Below are positions 1 to 9,988 of a stretch of 10,477 bases of DNA, piece after piece. Made by a program: the position numbers and the translations under genes. The notes under the pieces were generated by a model. That model saw only the letters and a program-made list of their open reading frames with translations, searched no databases and was not told where the DNA came from. The stretch comes from a virus (Duplodnaviria > Heunggongvirae > Uroviricota > Caudoviricetes). The stretch's first letter is position 1; the number at the start of each line of letters is the position of its first letter. Where the stretch lies: IMG/VR virus record IMGVR_UViG_2711768074_000015; one strand, written 5' to 3'.

Positions 1-134
1 CGCTGTCGTTCTCAAAATCGGTGGAGCTGCATGACAAAGTCATCGGGCATTATCTGAACATAAAACACTATCAATAAGTTGGAGTCATTACCCAGATATC
101 ATCGACTCTCAAAGGTGCTCTGGATATCAACAGC

Positions 135-1442
135 TTGATCATTGACTACGATAATGAAGATGTCCAAAGTTATTGGGAAGACGTTGTATTACCGAACTTA
201 AATGATAATGGTAATAAAGCTCTCACAAGAGATGAAACAATAGCCTATATTAAAGACAGTAAGCCTTGTAGAAGAATTAAAAGATTAATACATGATGATG
301 CTGTGTTGGAGGAACAAAAGGATAAAAACTTCATTGCAAAAATGATTGCAGAATATGCTGTGTCTAGAAATGCAATTATTTCTAGCAACACATCTGGCAA
401 TGTCATTCGGGGTGATGAAAGCGGAGTAAAATGGATTCAATGTGGTAATATCTTTGTCTCCCTATTTCATAAGGTTCAAGATGATCATGAAAACGATGGA
501 GATAGGATTTGGCAAACTCTCAATGATTCTCTCATTGAATGGAAACCATCTTATTATCAGTTAATAAAATCTGAAATTCAGAATGCAATCGAAGCTGAGG
601 CTTTATCTTTTGTAAATCATTTGGCTAACGATCATTACGGTCAAGCTGCGTGGTTAAATGAGATATTAAAATCAGACTCGCCTGATATTAGATGTAGAAA
701 TATTGACTTTGTATTTGGTAATTTATCAGAAGAGCTTTATCAAAGACTTAAAAATAATAATACGCTGGATGAATTTATCAAAAGTGTTTTTGATAGCTAT
801 TCAAATGAATACGCTAACAGCGGAGTTGCTGCATTGCTCCAATATTGCTCTTCAAAAATGGATCTGCCATCAAATAATGATACTTATCACGAAATGTATC
901 ATGCTTTAAATATGAATTTGTCTTCAAAGAATTTTGAAGATGGTCATATTTCTACTGGCACTATTTTCTTTGATACAGAGTCGAACAAATGGTATTTATG
1001 TGTATCTGCGGCATGTGATTTGGTTCCTACTCAGGGTAACGACCCTCACCATGTAAGATTAAGTCCGCACAGGCTCATTAAAGTTCTGGAGCTTTTTAAC
1101 GCCAGTCAGAGTAAAGCATTGCCATTTGCTGAACATTCGAAATATATATATGTAATGCATAAAAATCAAAGAAAATATCTCTCTATTTTCGAAGGGGATA
1201 AAACGCTTCCTGTTGTTGATTATATGGTGGTGTTGAATCATGGAACAACAGTTGATGGCGAAGAAAAAAATATTATTTCTGCCGTGTTTTTAAGTAATAT
1301 GGATGGCAACGTGCAAAATGTTCCTGTCCGACTCAAACTTAAATCTCAACTGAGAACTGGTTATGCAGAAAGATATCAGGCTATAGCGTCTCAGTATAGC
1401 TCAAGGATTGGTGTGGATTATGTATCAATGATGCTACCATAA
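135..1442 (+). CDS. Hypothetical protein, AT-rich cargo gene, function unknown
   Basis: Uninterrupted 435-codon ORF in a markedly AT-rich block. There is an in-frame stop at 75..77, only a TTG at 135 with no clear Shine-Dalgarno, and the first in-frame ATG is about 70 codons in (near nt 342), so the 5' end is uncertain. I recognise no family signature. There is a weak D-x13-EEK pattern near the C-terminus (VVDYMVVLNHGTTVDGEEK) that could be read as nuclease-like, but this is speculative. Confidence 0.5.
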   Translation: MIIDYDNEDVQSYWEDVVLPNLNDNGNKALTRDETIAYIKDSKPCRRIKRLIHDDAVLEEQKDKNFIAKMIAEYAVSRNAIISSNTSGNVIRGDESGVKWIQCGNIFVSLFHKVQDDHENDGDRIWQTLNDSLIEWKPSYYQLIKSEIQNAIEAEALSFVNHLANDHYGQAAWLNEILKSDSPDIRCRNIDFVFGNLSEELYQRLKNNNTLDEFIKSVFDSYSNEYANSGVAALLQYCSSKMDLPSNNDTYHEMYHALNMNLSSKNFEDGHISTGTIFFDTESNKWYLCVSAACDLVPTQGNDPHHVRLSPHRLIKVLELFNASQSKALPFAEHSKYIYVMHKNQRKYLSIFEGDKTLPVVDYMVVLNHGTTVDGEEKNIISAVFLSNMDGNVQNVPVRLKLKSQLRTGYAERYQAIASQYSSRIGVDYVSMMLP

Positions 1443-1513
1443 TTATTATATTTTAGGCGTGGTGATTTTTTTTCGCCATGCCTATTTTATATTTATCATC
1501 ACAATGATGTTGT

Positions 1514-1930
1514 TTATTTTTGTTTAAGTCTTCTAAGCTTCATGCATTCTAATGAGAATAATAATAGAGTTGTGCTGTATATAAAGCCAGAGTTAGTTAA
1601 TAACTTTAAATTTAATGCTTCAGGATTTTCACTGAGAAAGTGAAAGGCATAAACTAAGTATACAGCTAAAGTAGCCGTTCCAATTGTTGGTCCAATATCG
1701 CCTTGATCATGAGGTTCAAGGTTTACATTGAACTTGAAGATTAGCCATTCAAATCCCCAAGTAAAAAAAACAACTAATATCATGGCTGCGAATAATTTCG
1801 CGATGTTATCTGCTGATGGATTCATCAGAACAGATTGTTTCTGAAAAAATTCACAAAGTGAGAGTCCGAAAAAAATAAAAAAAAGTGGTCTGGAACTAAA
1901 TTTTTCAAAAACTTTGAATAGGGTTTCCAT
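1514..1930 (-). CDS. Small integral membrane protein (3-4 predicted TM helices), function unknown
   Basis: ATG at 1930 with AAGG upstream. The 138-aa product is dominated by hydrophobic stretches (LFFIFFGLSLCEFF, AAMILVVFFTWGFEWLIF, ATLAVYLVYAFHF, FIYSTTLLLFSL). AT-rich like the neighbouring 435-aa gene, and convergent with it. Confidence 0.5.
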   Translation of the reverse strand: METLFKVFEKFSSRPLFFIFFGLSLCEFFQKQSVLMNPSADNIAKLFAAMILVVFFTWGFEWLIFKFNVNLEPHDQGDIGPTIGTATLAVYLVYAFHFLSENPEALNLKLLTNSGFIYSTTLLLFSLECMKLRRLKQK

Positions 1931-1968
1931 TTTCTTTACCTTCAGGATTATATTAGCTATTCTGATAC

Positions 1969-3198
1969 TTAGGCTACCAGAGCATTTGATCTTTGAGCTT
2001 GAACGTAATCACTCCACCATTGCATCAAACTCTGTCGCTCTATCAGATATTCTGCACGATTGTATGCTGCGATAATTTCATCTTTTTTCGAGTGGGCAAG
2101 CGCTGCCTCAAGAACTTCAGCTCTGAATTTACCAGACTCCTCTGCCGCTGTTCGTGCAATAGAACGCATACCGTGAGCTACAAGCTCGCCTCCGAACCCC
2201 ATTCGGATGATAGCTGCGTTGGCTGTTTGTTCATGCATATGATTAAGAGGCGCTTTTATGCTGGGGAAAACCCATTCTCTATGCCCACTTATTGATTTCA
2301 TTAATTCAAGGATGCGCAAAGCTTCTTTACTCAAAGGAACTTTGTGAAGCTTTTTCATTTTCATGAAATCAGCAGGAATGTTCCAAATGCTGTTGGTTGT
2401 ATCAATATCAGACCACCTTGCGCGAACGGCTTCACCCGGACGAACCCATGTCAACAATTGCCATTCAATTAGCATACGTGTTTCCAACCGGATTGACGCA
2501 TTCGTCAAAGATTCCATAAACCTTGGCAATTCGCTTGGGGGAAGGGCAGGCATATTTTGCTTTTTTGGTTTACTGAATCTTTGACCAAGGTTGTCAGCCG
2601 GGTTGAACTCAATAAGTTCTTCAGTAGCTGCCCACCGGAAGATTTCATTCAGACGTGAAATGATACGGCGTAGAGTTTCCAATACGCCTCGTTGCTCAAT
2701 AGGATCAAGGTGTTGTTTTAAGAGCTTAGGTCGGATCTCATTGATAGGGACATTACCCAGACCGGGAAAGACATTTCTCTCTAAGCTGCGCCAGATGTCT
2801 GCTGCATGGTCTTGTGAGATACCTGATGTCTTTACCTTCTCATCTAACCATTTCCGCGCTACGGCTTGGAGAGTGTGCTCAGTAGCACTCTTTAATGCCT
2901 TCGCCTTATCGTTGTTATGGATTTGGGGATCAACACCATTTGCCAGAAAGGAGAGATATTCATCACGTAAGGCTCTGGCTCTTGCAAGGGTAAGGTGAGG
3001 ATATGTCCCAAGGCTCATTTTGGTTCTTTTCTTGCTCACTGGTACTGCATACCTGAAATACCAATTTTTCTTGCCTCCTTTCGCCAAAGGAGCGATTCGT
3101 AGAATCAGACCATCACCGTCAAACAAGTTGATTTCTTTATCGGCTGGCTTGGTGCTTTTGATTTCAGTGTCAGTGAGCTTCTTAGCGATTTTTGCCAT
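1969..3198 (-). CDS. int: Tyrosine recombinase / integrase, phage P4 (CP4-57 IntA-like) family
   Basis: The translation has the P4-type N-terminal arm-binding region (MAKIAKKLTDTEIKSTKP...FDGDGLILRI...WYFRY). The C-terminal catalytic region is HGMRSIARTAAEE ... AHSKKDEIIAAYNRAEYLIERQSLMQWWSDYV, colinear with P4 Int as I remember it (catalytic Tyr in the AYNR-type motif). I chose ATG at 3198 (GAGG 7-12 nt upstream; product starts MAKIAKK) over the ORF-track start at 3240, which has no Shine-Dalgarno. Confidence 0.9.
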   Translation of the reverse strand: MAKIAKKLTDTEIKSTKPADKEINLFDGDGLILRIAPLAKGGKKNWYFRYAVPVSKKRTKMSLGTYPHLTLARARALRDEYLSFLANGVDPQIHNNDKAKALKSATEHTLQAVARKWLDEKVKTSGISQDHAADIWRSLERNVFPGLGNVPINEIRPKLLKQHLDPIEQRGVLETLRRIISRLNEIFRWAATEELIEFNPADNLGQRFSKPKKQNMPALPPSELPRFMESLTNASIRLETRMLIEWQLLTWVRPGEAVRARWSDIDTTNSIWNIPADFMKMKKLHKVPLSKEALRILELMKSISGHREWVFPSIKAPLNHMHEQTANAAIIRMGFGGELVAHGMRSIARTAAEESGKFRAEVLEAALAHSKKDEIIAAYNRAEYLIERQSLMQWWSDYVQAQRSNALVA

Positions 3199-3201
3199 TT
3201 T

Positions 3202-3238
3202 GGGACCCTCGGTTTTTGGACCCTTCTTAGTGGGTCCC
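3202..3238. promoter_or_regulatory. Three copies of a 7-bp GGGACCC-type motif at 15-bp spacing in the leader of the P4-like integrase
   Basis: GGGACCC at 3202..3208, TGGACCC at 3217..3223 and GGGTCCC (the inverse complement) at 3232..3238, immediately upstream of the integrase ATG at 3198. The alternative reading is a repetitive GP(T/K)K peptide if translation started at 3240. Confidence 0.3.
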
Positions 3239-3294
3239 ATTCAGGGTGCCATAACTCGTAGTTCTCAGCAATTCTCACTGGACGACAATAGACG

Positions 3295-3733: not shown

Positions 3734-4075
3734 ATGAGAACAGTAGCGAGAAGATCGATACAGACGATTGAGCGTCGGACTCAACTCGTCAGTTCTTTTG
3801 TTGACTCAAACACAGCAAACGAGTTCTTCGTGAGAAGACTGAGTGATCGTGTCTCCCCGGCACGTCAGCTGTTTATTGTGACATTGAACAATGAGGTTCG
3901 TGACGGTGACGTGATCCCGTTCGCTGAGATCGCCATGAACAAAGAAAAATTGCGCTATGTTGTGAAGCCAGCAGATCAGTATCCTCAGTATGTAAGCAGT
4001 AATCTGCTGAAGAAAATTGAAGCGGCAATTGCTCTATACATGCAGAAGAACTACAGGGAAATTAACTACCATTAA
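3734..4075 (+). CDS. Hypothetical protein (113 aa), first gene of a two-gene cargo operon
   Basis: ATG at 3734 with GAGGAG 6 nt upstream. The next gene follows 11 nt downstream. I recognise no family signature. Confidence 0.6.
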   Translation: MRTVARRSIQTIERRTQLVSSFVDSNTANEFFVRRLSDRVSPARQLFIVTLNNEVRDGDVIPFAEIAMNKEKLRYVVKPADQYPQYVSSNLLKKIEAAIALYMQKNYREINYH

Positions 4076-4086
4076 AAGGTTGCTGA

Positions 4087-4854
4087 ATGGCTCCTGCGTT
4101 AATACCTTCATATAACAAGGACTTGAACATTACGCCATTTGGCGAAAAACGTCTTATTGAGTCATTCTATTTTTTCACTGCCGAGGCTGGCTTACTGAGG
4201 GCTGATGAGTACATTGTCAGTTCTGGTGAGTTTCAGTACTACTTGGATGTGTATCAACTGGGATGTTCCACCGACGACTTTTTTTTAGACTATGGCAGTG
4301 ACCTTCTTGATTCGAAGGTTCCAATGCAGGATCTGGTCAATACCCTCTTGGGTCTTGATATGGTAGACGATAACAAAACGATAAGAATAGGTCGTATACA
4401 GTTCAACGACTTTAATTTTATCGAAGAGAACGGTCAGATGATGACCGGAAAGCAAGTGAAAAGCGCTGTTATCGCACAGGATTTCCAATCAGCAGGTTTG
4501 GCGCGTGAGATCTATAAAATGCTTGCGCGAAAGCATGAGTTTCTCATCTGCGATAACATTCAAAGTATTGCCGGTGGTGCTCTTTGGGCTAGTAGCATCA
4601 TTCGAATTGCCGAGGTACGGATCTACAATTCACGCACGAAGAAATTTATGGACATACTTGGTCCAGGTGCGCGTGGCGTTTCAGGTACTTTGCCATGGAG
4701 TGCGAATGATCTGTCTGTAGATGAGATTGTTCGCTGGGGTCGTGCGTATGATGATGAAAACTGTTGTCGTCACATTGTACATGTTATCTGTAAGGACCGA
4801 CTCATTGACGATCAATTTCATGATTATGTTTCGATAGGTGGCGCGACAGAATAA
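4087..4854 (+). CDS. Hypothetical protein (255 aa), second gene of the cargo operon
   Basis: ATG at 4087 with AAGG upstream, and a terminator immediately after the stop. The segment SAVIAQDFQSAGLAREIYKML loosely resembles the Q/R-x-x-G-x-G/A motif of GNAT acyltransferases, but this is a weak pattern match, not a call. Confidence 0.6.
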   Translation: MAPALIPSYNKDLNITPFGEKRLIESFYFFTAEAGLLRADEYIVSSGEFQYYLDVYQLGCSTDDFFLDYGSDLLDSKVPMQDLVNTLLGLDMVDDNKTIRIGRIQFNDFNFIEENGQMMTGKQVKSAVIAQDFQSAGLAREIYKMLARKHEFLICDNIQSIAGGALWASSIIRIAEVRIYNSRTKKFMDILGPGARGVSGTLPWSANDLSVDEIVRWGRAYDDENCCRHIVHVICKDRLIDDQFHDYVSIGGATE

Positions 4855-4895: not shown

Positions 4896-6074
4896 TCACT
4901 TCTTCATTCCAGATTCCATTGCGGTTTTCCCGTCGTATTCAGCCAGGTATTTACCGTAATTGCGGAACAGCATTTCCGGCCCCTTATGCCCCATCTGCCC
5001 GGCAAGCCAGAAAAGGTTTACACCCTGGCTAATGTGTCTGGTGGCGAATGTGTGGCGCGTCTGGTACGGGTTACGGTAGCGCACACCAGCTTTTTTCAGG
5101 GTCGGCACCCATGCTTTTTTACGGATAGCGTCGGCGTTCGTCCAGGGATCTCCCGTTTTCGGATCGCTGAATATGAACTCACTTTTCATAAAGGTGTATT
5201 GCTTCTGCGCCTGCAGGGCCGCCAGCGCCTCACTGTTCAGCTCCACCTTACGGGTACCGGCTTTTGTCTTGGTGCCTTTAAGTACCCCTACGACACTGGC
5301 CGCCTGTATGTGCGCTGTATTACCTATAAAGTCGATATCGGTCCAACGTAATGCGCATAGCTCAGAGCTGCGTAGCCCTGTATTGAAGGCGAAGCGGAAC
5401 AGATTCTGCCATTCCTGATACTTGCAGTGCTGATATATGGCACTGGTTTCCGCAGGCGCAAACGGATCAACTTCGTAATCGTCGGCGTTCGGTTTACTGT
5501 CGACCACGTGATACCGGCTGGCGCTGACAAGAGTTACCGGGTTAATAGTCAACAGGCCATCAGTTACAGCCTCATCAATGGCGCTGCGCAGAAATGACAG
5601 GTTATTCCTGATTGTTTTCAGCTTAGTTTTTCGGCTGGCTATCCAATTTTTTAGTACCGCAGGCGTCAATTCTGTTACATGTAGTTTATGTAGTTCTGAT
5701 AGTGCTGATAGACATTTTTCGTAACCGCCAATGGTTGACGGCGACAGATTGCGGTTCATGCAAATTTTCAGGTATTCATCAAGATAGGACTTAATATTTT
5801 GGGTTTTCTTTACTACACCGAATAACTCCAGTTTTTTGGAACTGGGGAAATATTTCGCATATTCAAACGTTCCGCTGGCGATCTGATTTTGTATCTCCCC
5901 TAGCAGGCGCTCAGCATATTTAATACCACGTGTATTTGCCTCAAGCCGAGACAGGGGCTCCCTGCAAAGAACCCCTTTATATGTGAAAGTGATAACTAGT
6001 GTTGAAGCAGTTTTATGCTTACGAATAGTTACTCCTCTTGGCAGAGATAATAATCCTTGTTCTTTCTTGCCCAT
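4896..6074 (-). CDS. int: Phage tyrosine integrase (lambdoid type, with N-terminal arm-binding domain)
   Basis: 392 aa. ATG at 6074 with AGAGG upstream. The C-terminus YQTRHTFATRHISQGVNLFWLAGQMGHKGPEMLFRNYGKY has the R-H-x-x-R ... Y catalytic pattern of tyrosine recombinases. The N-terminal block GVTIRKHKTASTLVITFTYKGV is typical of an arm-binding domain. The 5' end overlaps the 3' end of the upstream xis-like gene. Confidence 0.9.
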   Translation of the reverse strand: MGKKEQGLLSLPRGVTIRKHKTASTLVITFTYKGVLCREPLSRLEANTRGIKYAERLLGEIQNQIASGTFEYAKYFPSSKKLELFGVVKKTQNIKSYLDEYLKICMNRNLSPSTIGGYEKCLSALSELHKLHVTELTPAVLKNWIASRKTKLKTIRNNLSFLRSAIDEAVTDGLLTINPVTLVSASRYHVVDSKPNADDYEVDPFAPAETSAIYQHCKYQEWQNLFRFAFNTGLRSSELCALRWTDIDFIGNTAHIQAASVVGVLKGTKTKAGTRKVELNSEALAALQAQKQYTFMKSEFIFSDPKTGDPWTNADAIRKKAWVPTLKKAGVRYRNPYQTRHTFATRHISQGVNLFWLAGQMGHKGPEMLFRNYGKYLAEYDGKTAMESGMKK

Positions 6075-6238
6075 TTTGAAACCTCTATTAAGTCGACCCA
6101 GCGTTCTTTAACTCCGTCGACTTTTAATACATGAACCCCTTCTTTCCATATTCCTCTTTGTATCCGTTTGTTAACGGCATCAACCGTTTCTCCCGCGTCG
6201 CGGCAGTAGGTTGATATAGGCACGCAATCCAGCCCCAT
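6029..6238 (-). CDS. xis: Excisionase-like small DNA-binding protein (Xis/AlpA-type winged helix)
   Basis: 69 aa, immediately upstream of int and overlapping it by 46 nt. GAGGTGA lies 5 nt before the ATG. The sequence ...ETVDAVNKRIQRGIWKEGVHVLKVDGVKERWVDL resembles the lambda Xis core (ETVRRWVRE...PPVKDGREY), recalled from memory. Confidence 0.6.
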   Translation of the reverse strand: MGLDCVPISTYCRDAGETVDAVNKRIQRGIWKEGVHVLKVDGVKERWVDLIEVSKWARKNKDYYLCQEE

Positions 6239-6246
6239 ACATCACC

Positions 6247-6393
6247 TCACATAACACTCAGCCCACGGCAGTGGCACCACACGTCAAACATTCGCTTCAC
6301 AACTTCACGACAGTAGAAGCCGTCAACATCTCGCGTCAGGTTATAGCGATTGCCGTAACGCTGGTGGACCCATTGTTCAAATGCTTTATTCAT
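6247..6393 (-). CDS. Small hypothetical protein (48 aa, Cys-rich), below the ORF-track length cutoff
   Basis: My own translation: MNKAFEQWVHQRYGNRYNLTRDVDGFYCREVVKRMFDVWCHCRGLSVM. ATG at 6393 with AAAGGAAG upstream. The stop lies 8 nt before the xis ATG. It fits the operon packing. Confidence 0.4.
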   Translation of the reverse strand: MNKAFEQWVHQRYGNRYNLTRDVDGFYCREVVKRMFDVWCHCRGLSVM

Positions 6394-6396
6394 TCT

Positions 6397-6639
6397 TTAC
6401 TTCCTTTTTATGGCTCGTAATTTTTTCAGGTGCTTTTCCTGCTCAGTGTCCGCGAGAATTTTGCGGTACTCCTGGTGGTCAATATGTTCGAACAGGCAGT
6501 TTAACTCACCAATGCGTACCCGCCCGGATCGTCCGTCCATCCGTCGAAAGAACACTGAGTGCTCAGTGATGCGAGTAATCACCACGGGGTATCCGGCTCT
6601 GTCCGTGTATATCTGACCGCGTTGAATCAAAGCGAACAT
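6397..6639 (-). CDS. Hypothetical small phage protein (80 aa)
   Basis: The ORF-track frame 6397..6675 starts at a TTG. I prefer the in-frame ATG at 6639, preceded by GGGGA, which also avoids overlapping the upstream 27-codon ORF. Product begins MFALIQRGQIYTDRAGYPVVITRI. Confidence 0.5.
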   Translation of the reverse strand: MFALIQRGQIYTDRAGYPVVITRITEHSVFFRRMDGRSGRVRIGELNCLFEHIDHQEYRKILADTEQEKHLKKLRAIKRK

Positions 6640-6643
6640 GTGG

Positions 6644-6727
6644 TTATCCCCATCGACAAATTGAGAACACAACAAACGCTACTGCGAATACCACCCCCAG
6701 AGTTACGATTGCATCAGGCCAGCTCAT
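6644..6727 (-). CDS. 27-aa hydrophobic single-TM peptide (MSWPDAIVTLGVVFAVAFVVFSICRWG)
   Basis: ATG at 6727 preceded by a textbook AGGAGGTGA at 7-nt spacing. TAA stop at 6644..6646, 4 nt before the next gene's ATG. Not in the ORF track because of its length. Confidence 0.4.
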   Translation of the reverse strand: MSWPDAIVTLGVVFAVAFVVFSICRWG

Positions 6728-6762
6728 TGATTCACCTCCTGCGGCGTCCTGGTATTCGATTT

Positions 6763-7331
6763 TCATTCCGGATGCTCCTGAGCCACATTGAAATCGCCAT
6801 GATCACGACAAGGCATCACAACAAATTCAGGATTGCCATACATTGAGTTGATGATGGAATCAAACTGAATTCTGACCGCTTGCCCGTCACCGGAGGAACG
6901 TAACTGGACGGGAATAAATTTACGCTCACGACCAAACATCTTCTCTGGATAACTCAGGTAACCCGCCTGGATCACCGGGTGTGTACAGAGGTCAAATTTT
7001 TTCGGAATGATGCGTTCCAAATCCGGAAAACAACCGTCCACCAATTTAATGCCGGTAATGGACAGCCGGCGCTGAAACTGGTCGCGATGAACAGGATCGG
7101 CTCTTTACTAAAAATCAGCTCTGTCGTTTCGGCTTTGGCCGGGACGCCACCTTCGAACTGGACAATGATGTTTTTCTTCGTCCGGATGCCGTGAGTCATG
7201 CGCAGTGCTACGAAACCATTGGTTGCCTCAATATGTTTTGGCGTGATGTGAAGACCGTTCAGGTAATAACGAACGTCGTTTTTAGCAGCGCACACCAGAG
7301 CGGCGCGAATAAGTTTTGACTGGATGATCAT
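6763..7331 (-). pseudogene. Beta-sliding-clamp (DnaN) domain II-III-like protein lacking domain I, reading frame interrupted by a frameshift near 7045..7075
   Basis: The two overlapping minus-strand ORFs (6972..7331 and 6763..7044) are colinear with E. coli DnaN as I remember it: AAKNDVRYYLNGLHI...ATNGFVAL vs AHQDVRYYLNGMLF...ATDGHRLA; ILFIATS/ELIFSK vs FIFTSK; then in the second frame KLVDGCFPDLERIIPKKFD vs KLVDGRFPDYRRVLPKNPD and EFVVMPCR vs AYVVMPMRL. The frame switch falls where the plus strand reads GCCGG-TAATGGACA-GCCGGC. The start ATG at 7331 has a GGAGG Shine-Dalgarno and overlaps the upstream stop (ATGA). Confidence 0.55.
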
Positions 7332-8077
7332 GCTTTATCCTCCCATCCGATTACCTGAAAAAGCCCCATCTTCGGGTGATACCAGCGTGTGCCGCGTGGT
7401 TCAGCCTCTGACATCATTTGGTGGAACGCCGCCATAAATGTCTCAAGCTCGACGACAGCCCTGCGAGACAACAGACCGTCCGGAGTCATAAATTCGTGCG
7501 TGTCGGTAGGGATGTGGTAGGCGTTGACCAGATTCCGACACTTGGCGTCACTCATTCCGCTTTTGGCTACCACCTGGCGGTAACCGACATATCCGGTGCG
7601 CATTGTGCCGCGTTTGATGTTCTCCACAGCTTTGGTGACCGTTTCGATCTTCTCTTCAACATGACTCAGGCGCTTCTGCTGGCGAACGGCATCGGCGGCC
7701 ATTGCAGCGATCATCTCCATTTCCGTCAGCGGCGCGTGAGTTCGGAAATAGCTGTTAACCAGTTCGCGCTGAACCTGCCATGCAAGAGCATCGTTAAAAG
7801 GCTTCGTCAACATCAGGTAACCAGACTCGAAAAGAATGATCCCTTTGGCAGTTCGCGCGGCAAAGGCATCAGAAAGTGACTCCGTACGTATTACGTCCGC
7901 AGTCATTTCAAGAAAATCCACCCCTTCGATAAAGTGAGAACGGTTGCGGTTAAACGCAGCACGGGCGGTACCTTCCGGGCGCTGGTGGACGTCATCAATT
8001 ATTGCAAATGTCACAACACGCTGACCGCGATATTCGATTACCGGAAACTGTTTGTTGTTGATGGTTACAATATTCAT
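7328..8077 (-). CDS. KilA-N / ORF6N (Bro-N-like) domain protein, antirepressor-like
   Basis: ATG at 8077 with GGAG 5 nt upstream (the ORF-track start at 8152 is less likely). The N-terminus MNIVTINNKQFPVIEYRGQRVVTFAIIDDVHQRPEGTARAAFNRNRSHFIEGVDFLE has the shape of phage KilA-N/ORF6N DNA-binding domains. This is a family-level call from memory. Confidence 0.6.
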   Translation of the reverse strand: MNIVTINNKQFPVIEYRGQRVVTFAIIDDVHQRPEGTARAAFNRNRSHFIEGVDFLEMTADVIRTESLSDAFAARTAKGIILFESGYLMLTKPFNDALAWQVQRELVNSYFRTHAPLTEMEMIAAMAADAVRQQKRLSHVEEKIETVTKAVENIKRGTMRTGYVGYRQVVAKSGMSDAKCRNLVNAYHIPTDTHEFMTPDGLLSRRAVVELETFMAAFHQMMSEAEPRGTRWYHPKMGLFQVIGWEDKA

Positions 8078-8120
8078 TTTTATCTCCAGACAGCCCGGCG
8101 TGTAATACCGGGCATATGTA

Positions 8121-8948
8121 TTACTTAACCTGAATAAATGGTGTGTTGGCACCGCTGGTCATGTATTGCGGCAGTGTACCGTTCCACTTGTTGATGGCTT
8201 CCAGCTCCATAACACCGGGGTTCTGGCGCAGAGCTTCACCGCGTAAACGAATAGCATCGGCTTCGGCCTGGGCTTTTGTGCGAATCGCATCTGCCTGTCC
8301 GGCAGCTTCCGCGCGCAACATGTTGGCTTCCGCTTCGCGCTGTTTTACTTCCTGCTCGCGTTGCAGGGTTTTCTGGTTCGCCGTGACTTTGGCATTAATG
8401 CTGTCGATAACAGTAGGTGGGTACTCCGGCTTACCCACATATGAGAGGCTCATTACCTGAATACCGATGGGCGTCATTTCTTCCTGAATGTCTTTAAGAG
8501 CTGCATCCAGCAGCTCAGACTTGCCGCCGTCGATAAATTTGTCGGTGGTCATTTTGCTGGCCAGTCGGTTGAGTGCGTCGGCTATCTTCTGGCGCAGGTC
8601 GGTGTCGGTAATGTCGTCCACGCCTTTGCGGTAGGTCTGAAAGACTGTGGTAACTTTGGATGGATCAACTTTGTAGGCCACGCCGATGTGATAGCCGATG
8701 GTTGTACCGTCACTCATCTGGAAACTGAATGGATCATCGTAGGTCTTCATCTGCTTAAAGGTCGGGAAGATGTAAACCTCAGTGTTCCATCCCGTCCAGT
8801 AGCGCCCAACACCGACCACTTCACCGACGCCTTTATCGTCGCCCAGTTTGTTTACTTTGATGCCCACATTACCAGGCTCAACGCGATCGCAACCGACAAG
8901 GCCAATGGTCGGCAGAACAAGGGCTAAAGCAAAAAGTAATTTTTTCAT
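8121..8948 (-). CDS. SPFH / band-7 (prohibitin-like) domain lipoprotein, predicted inner-membrane anchored
   Basis: Signal peptide with lipobox MKKLLFALALVLPTIGLVGC followed by Asp at +2 (the inner-membrane retention rule in E. coli). SPFH-like core, then a C-terminal Ala/Glu/Gln/Arg-rich coiled-coil region (QREQEVKQREAEANMLRAEAAGQADAIRTKAQAEADAIRLRGEALRQNP). The start ATG overlaps the stop of the upstream small TM gene (ATGA). Confidence 0.8.
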   Translation of the reverse strand: MKKLLFALALVLPTIGLVGCDRVEPGNVGIKVNKLGDDKGVGEVVGVGRYWTGWNTEVYIFPTFKQMKTYDDPFSFQMSDGTTIGYHIGVAYKVDPSKVTTVFQTYRKGVDDITDTDLRQKIADALNRLASKMTTDKFIDGGKSELLDAALKDIQEEMTPIGIQVMSLSYVGKPEYPPTVIDSINAKVTANQKTLQREQEVKQREAEANMLRAEAAGQADAIRTKAQAEADAIRLRGEALRQNPGVMELEAINKWNGTLPQYMTSGANTPFIQVK

Positions 8949-9133
8949 CTTTTATCCTTAGAAAAAGAAAGACCCTTATAAATGGCATAAATGCAGGGCG
9001 GGGTCAGACACGCCAGAGCAAAGCCAGAAATCACTGCTACCGTATCCTTCATTGATATGAGGGCCGGAACGATTAATCCGTAAATACATGTGATAATTGC
9101 CAGTGATATAACTATTCTGAAATAAATGTTCAT
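8945..9133 (-). CDS. Small two-TM membrane protein (62 aa), translationally coupled to the SPFH lipoprotein
   Basis: ATG at 9133 with AGGAGG at ideal spacing. Two hydrophobic segments (IVISLAIITCIYGLIVPALI and VISGFALACLTPPCIYAIY). Its TGA overlaps the ATG of the SPFH gene. Confidence 0.6.
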   Translation of the reverse strand: MNIYFRIVISLAIITCIYGLIVPALISMKDTVAVISGFALACLTPPCIYAIYKGLSFSKDKR

Positions 9134-9193: not shown

Positions 9194-9586
9194 TCAGAAT
9201 GGTTTTGTTGCCATCAGTTCGTAATATCCGGCGCTCCATGTGTCATATTTTCTGAACCATTTTTCTGTATACTGTTTCCTGGCGATGAGTCTGCGCAGTC
9301 GTCTGATTGTTCGCTGGTGTGCGCGGGTATACTCTGTGGTTGATTCTCCACGTTTCCATATCTCATTCCTGTTGAAGATAAAACGCTTGTCAGGATAGCG
9401 TTGTCGGAATCCTGAACGTTCAAAAGCGCGGGTGGTCATAAAGAATGCCAGGTAACGAATTGCCGTTTTTCGGGTGAGGCATTTTTTTGTTCTTCCGTGG
9501 CGTGTTACAAAAAATAACGGGCCGACGGGTGTATCATGTTTCTGTAATGCCTGGTCAATGGTGCTGGCGGTGCGGTTGTCGATCAT
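9194..9586 (-). CDS. Hypothetical basic protein (130 aa)
   Basis: ATG at 9586 with GGAG upstream. Arg/Lys-rich C-terminal half. No family recognised. Confidence 0.5.
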   Translation of the reverse strand: MIDNRTASTIDQALQKHDTPVGPLFFVTRHGRTKKCLTRKTAIRYLAFFMTTRAFERSGFRQRYPDKRFIFNRNEIWKRGESTTEYTRAHQRTIRRLRRLIARKQYTEKWFRKYDTWSAGYYELMATKPF

Positions 9587-9772
9587 TTCTTTATTTCTCC
9601 CGAATAACGTTCATGACTCATTACTTCCCAGTTCCGGCCGTCGTCTTTCGATAACAGCCGCCAGCGACGGTTAACCTTCAGACTGAGATATCCGGTGCGC
9701 TGTATCCGATGCGGAAATATCCGTCGGCATCGGTACAACAACAGGACCTGCAATGCCTGCCGGTGGATCCGC

Positions 9773-9988
9773 TCAGGAATGCGTGTTGCTGTTAATGCCA
9801 CCGGTTTCCTCCTGAGCAGGTGCTGTTATCTGATACCCCGCTCTTTCTGCCAGCCGTATGAATGTATCCATGCTGGCAATCAGCTCGCCATCGCGGACTT
9901 TGCAGACACCTGTGACTTGGCCATTTTCAATTGTCATAACGATCTGCACTTTTTCGTGCACAACAGATACAGGGGATAAATTAGCCAT
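9773..9988 (-). CDS. Hypothetical small protein (71 aa)
   Basis: ATG at 9988 overlaps the stop of the upstream gene (TGATG), indicating translational coupling. No family recognised. Confidence 0.5.
   Translation of the reverse strand: MANLSPVSVVHEKVQIVMTIENGQVTGVCKVRDGELIASMDTFIRLAERAGYQITAPAQEETGGINSNTHS

Follow-up and report, generated by a model that had tools for sequence, protein, structure and literature searches.

What a phage gains from carrying a piece of its host's replication clamp, and whether a damaged copy of such a piece still does anything, are the questions raised by a small gene in a 10,477-nucleotide (nt) stretch of DNA from a tailed virus (Caudoviricetes; IMG/VR record IMGVR_UViG_2711768074_000015), referred to below as the window. 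The gene covers 569 nt of the minus strand (6763..7331) and can be read as two overlapping open reading frames (ORFs). An original prediction, made from the sequence alone, had described it as a prophage-encoded, truncated homologue of the beta clamp (DnaN) with an interrupted reading frame. This headline stands, as do its placement in a prophage early region (the early-left operon of a lambdoid prophage, from int/xis to cI) and the split across two overlapping frames. The family to which the gene belongs is a true beta-clamp homologue, and the window carries a pseudogene of it. The intact relatives retain the part of the clamp that holds its partner-binding pocket and may use it, on a tentative reading, to capture clamp-binding motifs.

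The relationship to DnaN emerges from family profiles. Single-sequence searches with an intact orthologue (against Pfam, NCBIfam and, with phmmer, the PDB) gave sub-threshold matches only and made a family profile necessary: E=0.005 for Pfam DNA_pol3_beta_2 (17.4 bits versus a curated cut-off of 27), E=5e-4 for TIGR00663 (19.1 versus 137.65 bits) and E ~0.003 for beta clamps of known structure. A profile built from 23 relatives then matched E. coli beta in the PDB with E=1.3e-13, a significant similarity that bears out the predicted homology. Likewise, a hidden Markov model (HMM) of 190 sequences, made up of the E. coli protein and search hits that are mostly cluster representatives, scored 76.7 bits against E. 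coli DnaN. The family has the clamp fold. The AlphaFold2 model of an 82%-identical relative reached a predicted local distance difference test (pLDDT) value of 89.9 and a predicted template modelling score of 0.86, and many structural matches with template modelling scores of 0.7-0.8 were found in BFVD. The three predicted motifs, DVRYYLNG, KLVDGCFPD and FVVMPCR, are all present and in order, and the alignment begins at DnaN residue 136, in agreement with the proposal that the gene starts at the equivalent of clamp domain II.

How much of the clamp is retained required a correction. The first 111 residues align with DnaN 136-250, which comprises domain II and the linker. The C-terminal part was at first taken for the first half of domain III, from a HMMER alignment to DnaN 289, an assignment that failed when the two halves were tested directly: the C-terminal HMM scores 22.5 bits on the second half (segment 310-366, with the match at 316-366) and only 3.0 bits on the first (250-312). 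The claim that the gene holds domains II and III only is thus right for domain II, the linker and the second half of domain III, and wrong for a complete domain III, the first half being absent. In place of helix alpha2 of domain II there is a short loop, as indicated both by the alignment and by the model, where no helix lies between the strands at 55-60 and 69-73. The intact architecture is therefore, with high probability, domain II (~136-250), the linker and the second, beta-alpha-beta-beta-beta half of domain III (~316-366).

Compared with DnaN (TIGR00663; Pfam DNA_pol3_beta_2/_3; PDB 1MMI and 2POL), which has three complete domains in 366 residues, the 189-residue protein lacks domain I, the first half of domain III (about DnaN 255-313), helix alpha2 and the residues of the dimer interface. 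In DnaN this interface pairs Ile78 and Phe106 of domain I with Ile272, Leu273 and Glu298-304 of domain III (PMC11139829), all of which lie in the missing parts. The formation of a DnaN-type head-to-tail dimer ring by the family thus appears very unlikely from its sequence. PCNA and T4 gp45 differ in another way, since they consist of two complete domains and form trimers, whereas the family has one and a half domains of DnaN descent. Judging from the contacts between elements in the DnaN ring, the retained pieces would form one contiguous quarter-arc of half-domains II-b, II-a and III-b, holding the whole II/III boundary and the pocket. The residues of the clamp-binding-motif pocket listed for the beta clamp (PMC11139829) all fall within the retained segments.

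The copy in the window does not have this architecture. A MAFFT alignment with four related loci shows that a single G is missing at gene position 238 (GATC[G]CTG), between 7094 and 7095, where there is no homopolymer. The original prediction had looked for the break at 7040..7080, near a GCCGG duplication (repeats at 7051 and 7065); the true site lies 25-45 nt from the repeats. The suggested comparison with orthologous prophages did yield an intact version: in other E. coli prophages the gene is 570 nt long and encodes 189 residues in a single frame (WP_000586690.1, 'beta clamp domain-containing protein'). At 99% DNA identity to these alleles, the window copy is split by its 1-nt deletion and lacks the uninterrupted ORF of ~172-200 codons. 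Window positions 6600..7500, which span the gene, are 100% identical to E. coli E110019, where RefSeq lists the locus (ECE110019_RS17465) as a 'frameshifted' pseudogene. The window copy is almost certainly a pseudogene through a real 1-nt deletion, and no counter-evidence to this call was found in the analysis. Joined into one statement, the pseudogene call and the intact architecture are held with the same high confidence as the architecture.

Three explanations had been offered for the break, and only a real mutation agrees with the data. A sequencing or assembly indel, with the gene intact in the organism, would take the form of a single-base difference, as seen here, and the 569-nt version was found in just one of the 60 complete E. 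coli genomes with the gene. Nevertheless, the identical 569-nt gene was present in all ten loci fetched, from independently made assemblies of isolates of several projects (Sanger-era drafts and a finished chromosome) and two ENA metagenomes. The collection of public assemblies lists the exact 119-residue product in 288 of its blocks, 203 contigs were seen to carry it, and the deletion site offers no homopolymer to a faulty read. The recurrence of the same deletion in ten independent assemblies, with the product on 203 contigs, excludes such an error and leaves it a negligible probability.

A programmed -1 ribosomal frameshift, or another recoding event that yields the full-length protein, has no better prospects. 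The native frame downstream is indeed -1 relative to ORF1, and an in-phase A_AAA_AAT heptamer occurs at 6996..7002. This heptamer is too far downstream to restore the protein: a slip there would keep 33 garbage residues and lose KLVDGxFPD. This A-run is also where another allele, P0041, acquired its own inactivating frameshift. Closer to the deletion the -1 frame is shut by TAG TAA (7105..7110), which leaves ~11 nt open, and inspection of the sequence from 7104 to 7094 found no slippery heptamer. Orthologues are single-frame in other E. coli strains and in all other genera; the junction heptamer and conserved two-frame layout expected of dnaX- or IS3-type frameshifting are both missing. Recoding is excluded by the single-frame orthologues, the short open stretch and the lack of a heptamer in it, and its chance of being correct is vanishingly small.

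Loss of the G shifts the frame after codon 79, and translation proceeds through 40 unrelated codons to the TGA at 6972. The resulting 119-residue product contains only the first part of domain II, without the KLVDGxFPD linker, the C-terminal half-domain or the VVMPxR strand. Without these elements the inter-domain pocket cannot form, and the window copy is a non-functional, dead allele. The native-frame remainder (6763..7092) now has no in-phase start codon. Between the two functions put forward for the locus, that of a decaying remnant fits the window copy, and that of a clamp mimic or competitor can apply to its intact relatives only.

One could still suppose that the pieces are expressed and useful, by re-association or through a new function of the 119-residue piece, and that this explains how common the allele is. 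It occurs on 203 contigs and in three attachment-site contexts, and the TGA of ORF1 overlaps a native-frame GTG (GTGA, 6972..6975) that gene callers take as the start of a 70-residue downstream ORF. However, that GTG start would leave out native residues 80-119, the strands and the whole linker, while the TTG start at 7044 would leave out residues 80-96, two strands of domain II, and has no Shine-Dalgarno sequence ahead of it. The intact allele is at least five times commoner (at least 1000 contigs), and independent disruptions of the gene (a +1 frameshift, the -1 frameshift in the A-run and two truncations, one of them next to IS911) point to neutral decay. Useful pieces are therefore a very improbable explanation, if a slightly better one than a sequencing error.

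The distribution of alleles in populations agrees with decay. Three different integrases and insertion sites are represented among the prophages that hold the ten 569-nt loci; the frameshift allele is inherited and has spread into these prophages together with near-identical early regions. Its spread across three integrase and attachment contexts implies that the gene is dispensable in lysogens. The un-shifted ancestor allele (F40, S146; WP_097426564.1) was seen on 4 contigs, while the common intact allele has Ser at codon 40 (S40). Among 5426 complete E. coli genomes, 60 carry the gene, and 56 of these have a 570-nt copy. The four disrupted copies are the -1 allele of the window, a +1 frameshift (571 nt) in DETEC-S792 and truncated copies in VL7S7 and O121 201805972, the former next to the IS911 insertion. 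The P0041 allele, whose -1 frameshift lies in the A-run at IIPKK, represents a cluster of 64 sequences, mostly from Shigella and E. coli fragments, with its representative on 25 contigs. Repeated disruption of this kind is how a dispensable accessory gene of a prophage ordinarily decays.

The intact family is widespread and well conserved. An intact orthologue matches PHROG 3007, a family of phage beta-clamp-like proteins, end to end (E=5.8e-65; residues 1-179 on profile positions 3-188 of 190). The window gene is a member, with intact E. coli alleles at 99% nucleotide identity; relative to other members it is one base short, has only residues 1-79 in frame and carries Phe at the equivalent of His175. 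Homologues of 172-200 residues occur in prophages of many Enterobacterales, and the family is represented in 253 phage records, among them Dhillonvirus bas14_0007, Bas77-79 and Shewanella phage 1/41. Against 1.84 billion cluster representatives, a search returned 7312 matches at E<=1e-3 and 1062 at E<=1e-10. Within the best 150 matches, almost every full-length protein has 165-215 residues, and about ten matches are shorter fragments. The median ratio of nonsynonymous to synonymous substitution rates (dN/dS) is 0.11 over 38 pairs, indicative of strong purifying selection on the family. Genomic copies are intact in 27 of 28 cases, the exception being in a genome-degrading symbiont. In lytic siphoviruses the gene stands alone, on the opposite strand within structural modules, in the manner of a moron. 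In Dhillonvirus and Shewanella phage 1/41 it is isolated among head and tail genes that run the other way. In Bas77 the genes before it encode a ParB-like protein and a DNA methyltransferase, and the structural genes lie on the other strand (5210..7525 of the compared locus).

Annotation of the family is inconsistent. Many records name it 'DNA polymerase III beta subunit', and PHROG 3007 itself bears the label 'RusA-like Holliday junction resolvase', repeated in many RefSeq and pharokka phages (NC_025458.1, NC_054650.1 and Bas77_0042 in PQ850598.1). A RusA-like identity was considered and rejected: sequence and fold searches of the family supported no similarity to RusA, all of the evidence being clamp-like, and the label is probably a propagated mis-annotation. 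Clustering of proteins at 90% identity places 189-residue clamp-like proteins under a 249-residue 'ORF6N domain-containing protein' representative, which looks like an artefact and accounts for the absence of a full-length E. coli match in the first homology search. In the searchable literature no functional study of truncated or phage DnaN-like proteins was found. The window gene is thus already known, as part of a catalogued family and at a locus flagged as frameshifted, and has no novelty of its own.

Conservation within the family is concentrated at the pocket. Twenty columns have a consensus of at least 80% across the 190 sequences, and half of them are pocket residues identical to E. coli beta: R152, L155, T172, G174, H175, P242, Y323, M362, P363 and R365. 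The pocket takes up 17 of 189 columns, so that 10 of 17 mapped positions are conserved at this level (hypergeometric p=2e-7). Codon 40 (7212..7214) encodes the equivalent of beta His175, the residue that bridges the two pocket subsites. Histidine occurs here in 89% of the family, including Salmonella and Klebsiella proteins; the common intact E. coli allele has Ser, and the lineage of the window has Phe.

In the ring, this pocket serves polymerases, the clamp-loader delta subunit, Hda, MutS/MutL and other partners. The retained arc would form the hydrophobic pocket that docks clamp-binding motifs of the QLxLF type, and the intact family would then be a soluble module that binds such motifs without encircling DNA. 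Two modes can be envisaged: a decoy that sequesters or redirects host clamp partners, or an adaptor that tethers a phage partner. Either role as a motif binder is a plausible candidate that falls somewhat short of an even chance. A more elaborate proposal, correspondingly a little more doubtful, is that intact members constitute a distinct clamp-derived class with a one-and-a-half-domain, pocket-only structure that does not close a ring. With it, many temperate and lytic phages would capture clamp-binding motifs and so rewire or starve the partner network of the host clamp. In lambdoid prophages it would possibly act with the C-terminal domain of the antirepressor-like protein encoded upstream, and the window copy would be a natural null allele.

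Several observations weigh against motif binding. In the E. coli alleles the subsite-bridging His175 position is taken by Ser or Phe, and the function of this branch may have changed already. Conservation is weak at pocket positions R176, L177 and M364, and V344 has no mapped counterpart. DnaN itself has its best conserved residues in the pocket, and the enrichment could in part be an inherited structural constraint. The missing half of domain III would expose a core surface that may mediate oligomerisation instead. Finally, some carriers (Dhillonvirus) encode their own DNA polymerase I, which leaves room for a replication-accessory role. The idea that carrier phages are without a polymerase was dropped: it is true for the prophage region examined and false for Dhillonvirus.

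A rival view makes the intact family a DNA-encircling processivity clamp of new stoichiometry, for example four copies of three half-domains that make up the 12 half-domains of a normal ring and serve a phage or host polymerase. The retained segments, as reconstructed above, amount to one contiguous quarter-arc, and the missing half-domain leaves surfaces able to pair isologously. The widespread name 'DNA polymerase III beta subunit' and the DNA polymerase I of gene-carrying Dhillonviruses would also suit such a clamp. Yet both natural ring-closing elements are absent and the DNA-facing helix alpha2 of domain II is deleted. Carrier lambdoid prophages encode no polymerase in the region examined, and the lytic phages keep the gene away from their replication modules. 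A ring is accordingly improbable.

It is likewise unlikely, though slightly less so, that the intact family poisons the host clamp as a dominant-negative subunit that binds beta monomers or the clamp loader. The interpretation is suggested by the location of a clamp fragment in regions of the host-takeover type and by the far tighter binding of the delta subunit to monomeric than to dimeric beta (PMC11139829). With Ile272/Leu273, Glu298-304 and all of domain I absent, however, neither face of the beta-beta interface is present, and any contact with delta would have to use the motif pocket, so that the poison model becomes a particular form of the decoy model.

As a decoy or adaptor, the intact family would join Twort Gp168 (PDB 7EVP) and MuC of phage Mu, phage proteins that target the host clamp (PMC8565349, PMC12867686), as a phage factor in the beta-clamp interaction network. 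Gp168 and MuC bind the clamp itself and are unrelated in sequence, whereas the family is clamp-derived and would compete for clamp partners. No match to any anti-phage defence-system model was found with PADLOC at E<=0.01.

The window itself, with a decaying accessory gene already flagged as frameshifted, is of little weight. The family is of more interest: it has thousands of members under strong purifying selection, is present in model phages of the BASEL collection and keeps exactly that portion of the clamp to which all polymerase, repair and regulatory partners bind. Should its members bind motifs, they would be a simple phage tool against host replication and repair, and a ready minimal scaffold on which to study the clamp pocket or develop drugs against it. 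Natural isogenic controls are available in the frameshifted allele and the rare intact F40 allele, and the pocket-only architecture merits modest follow-up. Coordinates of the gene and its parts are collected in Table 1.

Table 1. Parts of the frameshifted clamp-like gene and its junctions, in window coordinates.
Feature	Position	Strand	Size	Basis
ORF1	6972..7331	-	119 aa	
ORF2	6763..7044	-	93 aa from TTG	
Whole frameshifted gene, pseudogene of 189-aa phage 'beta clamp domain-containing protein' (WP_000586690.1 family, PHROG 3007)	6763..7331	-		
Codons 1-79 in native frame: helix alpha1, DVRYYLNG, ATNG(F)VAL and strands; DnaN 136 to ~215, most of domain II	7095..7331	-		orthologue and HMM alignments
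1-nt deletion site; gene-strand G absent from GATC[G]CTG	7094..7095	-		MAFFT alignment, window versus four related loci
Out-of-frame tail of ORF1, LFIATSFSAGC...SVHTR, then TGA	6972..7094	-	40 codons	ORF translation
Native-frame remainder, residues 81-189: last two domain-II strands, linker, second half of domain III	6763..7092	-		frame-2 translation, HMM
DVRYYLNG, exactly E. coli DnaN 150-157; pocket R152 and L155 equivalents	7254..7277	-		alignment; pocket list of PMC11139829
ATNGFVAL, matches DnaN 171-178 (ATDGHRLA); T and G are pocket residues	7203..7226	-		alignment
TAG TAA stops in downstream (native) frame, 11-16 nt upstream of deletion	7105..7110	-		sequence
KLVDGCFPD, matches DnaN 235-243 (inter-domain linker, Pro242 equivalent); in shifted frame only	7021..7047	-		alignment
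QAGYLSYPEKMF helix, matches DnaN 320-331; Tyr323 equivalent (Y in 86% of family), Asn320 equivalent is Q here	6934..6969	-		alignment
FVVMPCR, matches DnaN 359-365; C-terminal strand with pocket V360, M362, P363, R365	6805..6825	-		alignment
Operon junction: GGGAGGA Shine-Dalgarno at 7338..7344; ATGA at 7328..7331, stop of ORF6N gene overlapping start of clamp-like gene	7328..7344	-		sequence
Second ATGA overlap: TGA of clamp-like gene on ATG of downstream 40-aa ORF (6644..6766)	6763..6766	-		sequence

The operon runs in the order integrase, small ORFs, DUF4222, the 40-residue ORF (which carries a RefSeq annotation), the clamp-like gene, the ORF6N-domain protein and the SPFH/Band-7 protein, and onward to a LexA-type repressor. 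Through the 4-nt ATGA overlap the clamp-like gene is translationally coupled to the ORF6N-domain protein upstream (7328..8152, minus strand), an arrangement also found in 11 other loci, from E. coli, Shigella, Citrobacter, Xenorhabdus and Photorhabdus. The C-terminal domain of the upstream protein, ~100 residues long, is conserved from E. coli to Xenorhabdus and Photorhabdus (...KCR.L...TPDG...FM.A...MM.EAE.R..W.HP.MG[LI]FQVIGWE, ending in ...RGTRW.HP.MG[LI]FQVIGWE), even in a locus where the N-terminal ORF6N domain has been swapped for another. The two genes may therefore form a two-gene module. Within this conserved domain, the tail of the protein includes a conserved KMGLF (KMG[LI]F) that loosely resembles a clamp-binding motif; loose motifs of this kind occur in 19% of background ORFs, and KMGLF is a lead only.

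Next in the operon lie the SPFH/Band-7 protein with a lipoprotein-like signal (8121..8948, minus strand) and a 62-residue membrane peptide (8945..9133, minus strand). Together with an ORF named ParE-family toxin-like by RefSeq (9583..9801, minus strand), they look like host-interaction cargo. At the other end of the window, positions 1..2000 have a guanine-cytosine content of 34%, compared with 44-52% elsewhere, and adjoin a P4-type integrase (1969..3240, minus strand). This low-GC stretch is island cargo. It contains a 435-residue ORF (135..1442, plus strand), with no Pfam or PADLOC match, and a 138-residue membrane-like ORF (1514..1930, minus strand), with no PADLOC match. A second tyrosine integrase of a different type (4896..6074, minus strand) lies 1.7 kb from the first, indicating tandem mobile elements. 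Neither Pfam nor PADLOC matched the two plus-strand genes between them (113 and 255 residues; 3734..4854). The integrase junction yielded no tRNA or tmRNA, and tRNA, Rfam and PADLOC scans of the window were empty. In the finished E110019 chromosome the DUF4222 gene is interrupted by an IS3-family insertion (a difference of ~1.3 kb; 6736..7949 there, window ~6590) that is absent from the window. E110019 also has ypjA-side flanks that the window lacks, so that the window would stem from a close relative of this strain or from a related assembly; its best matches are three other loci, at 99.95-99.97%.

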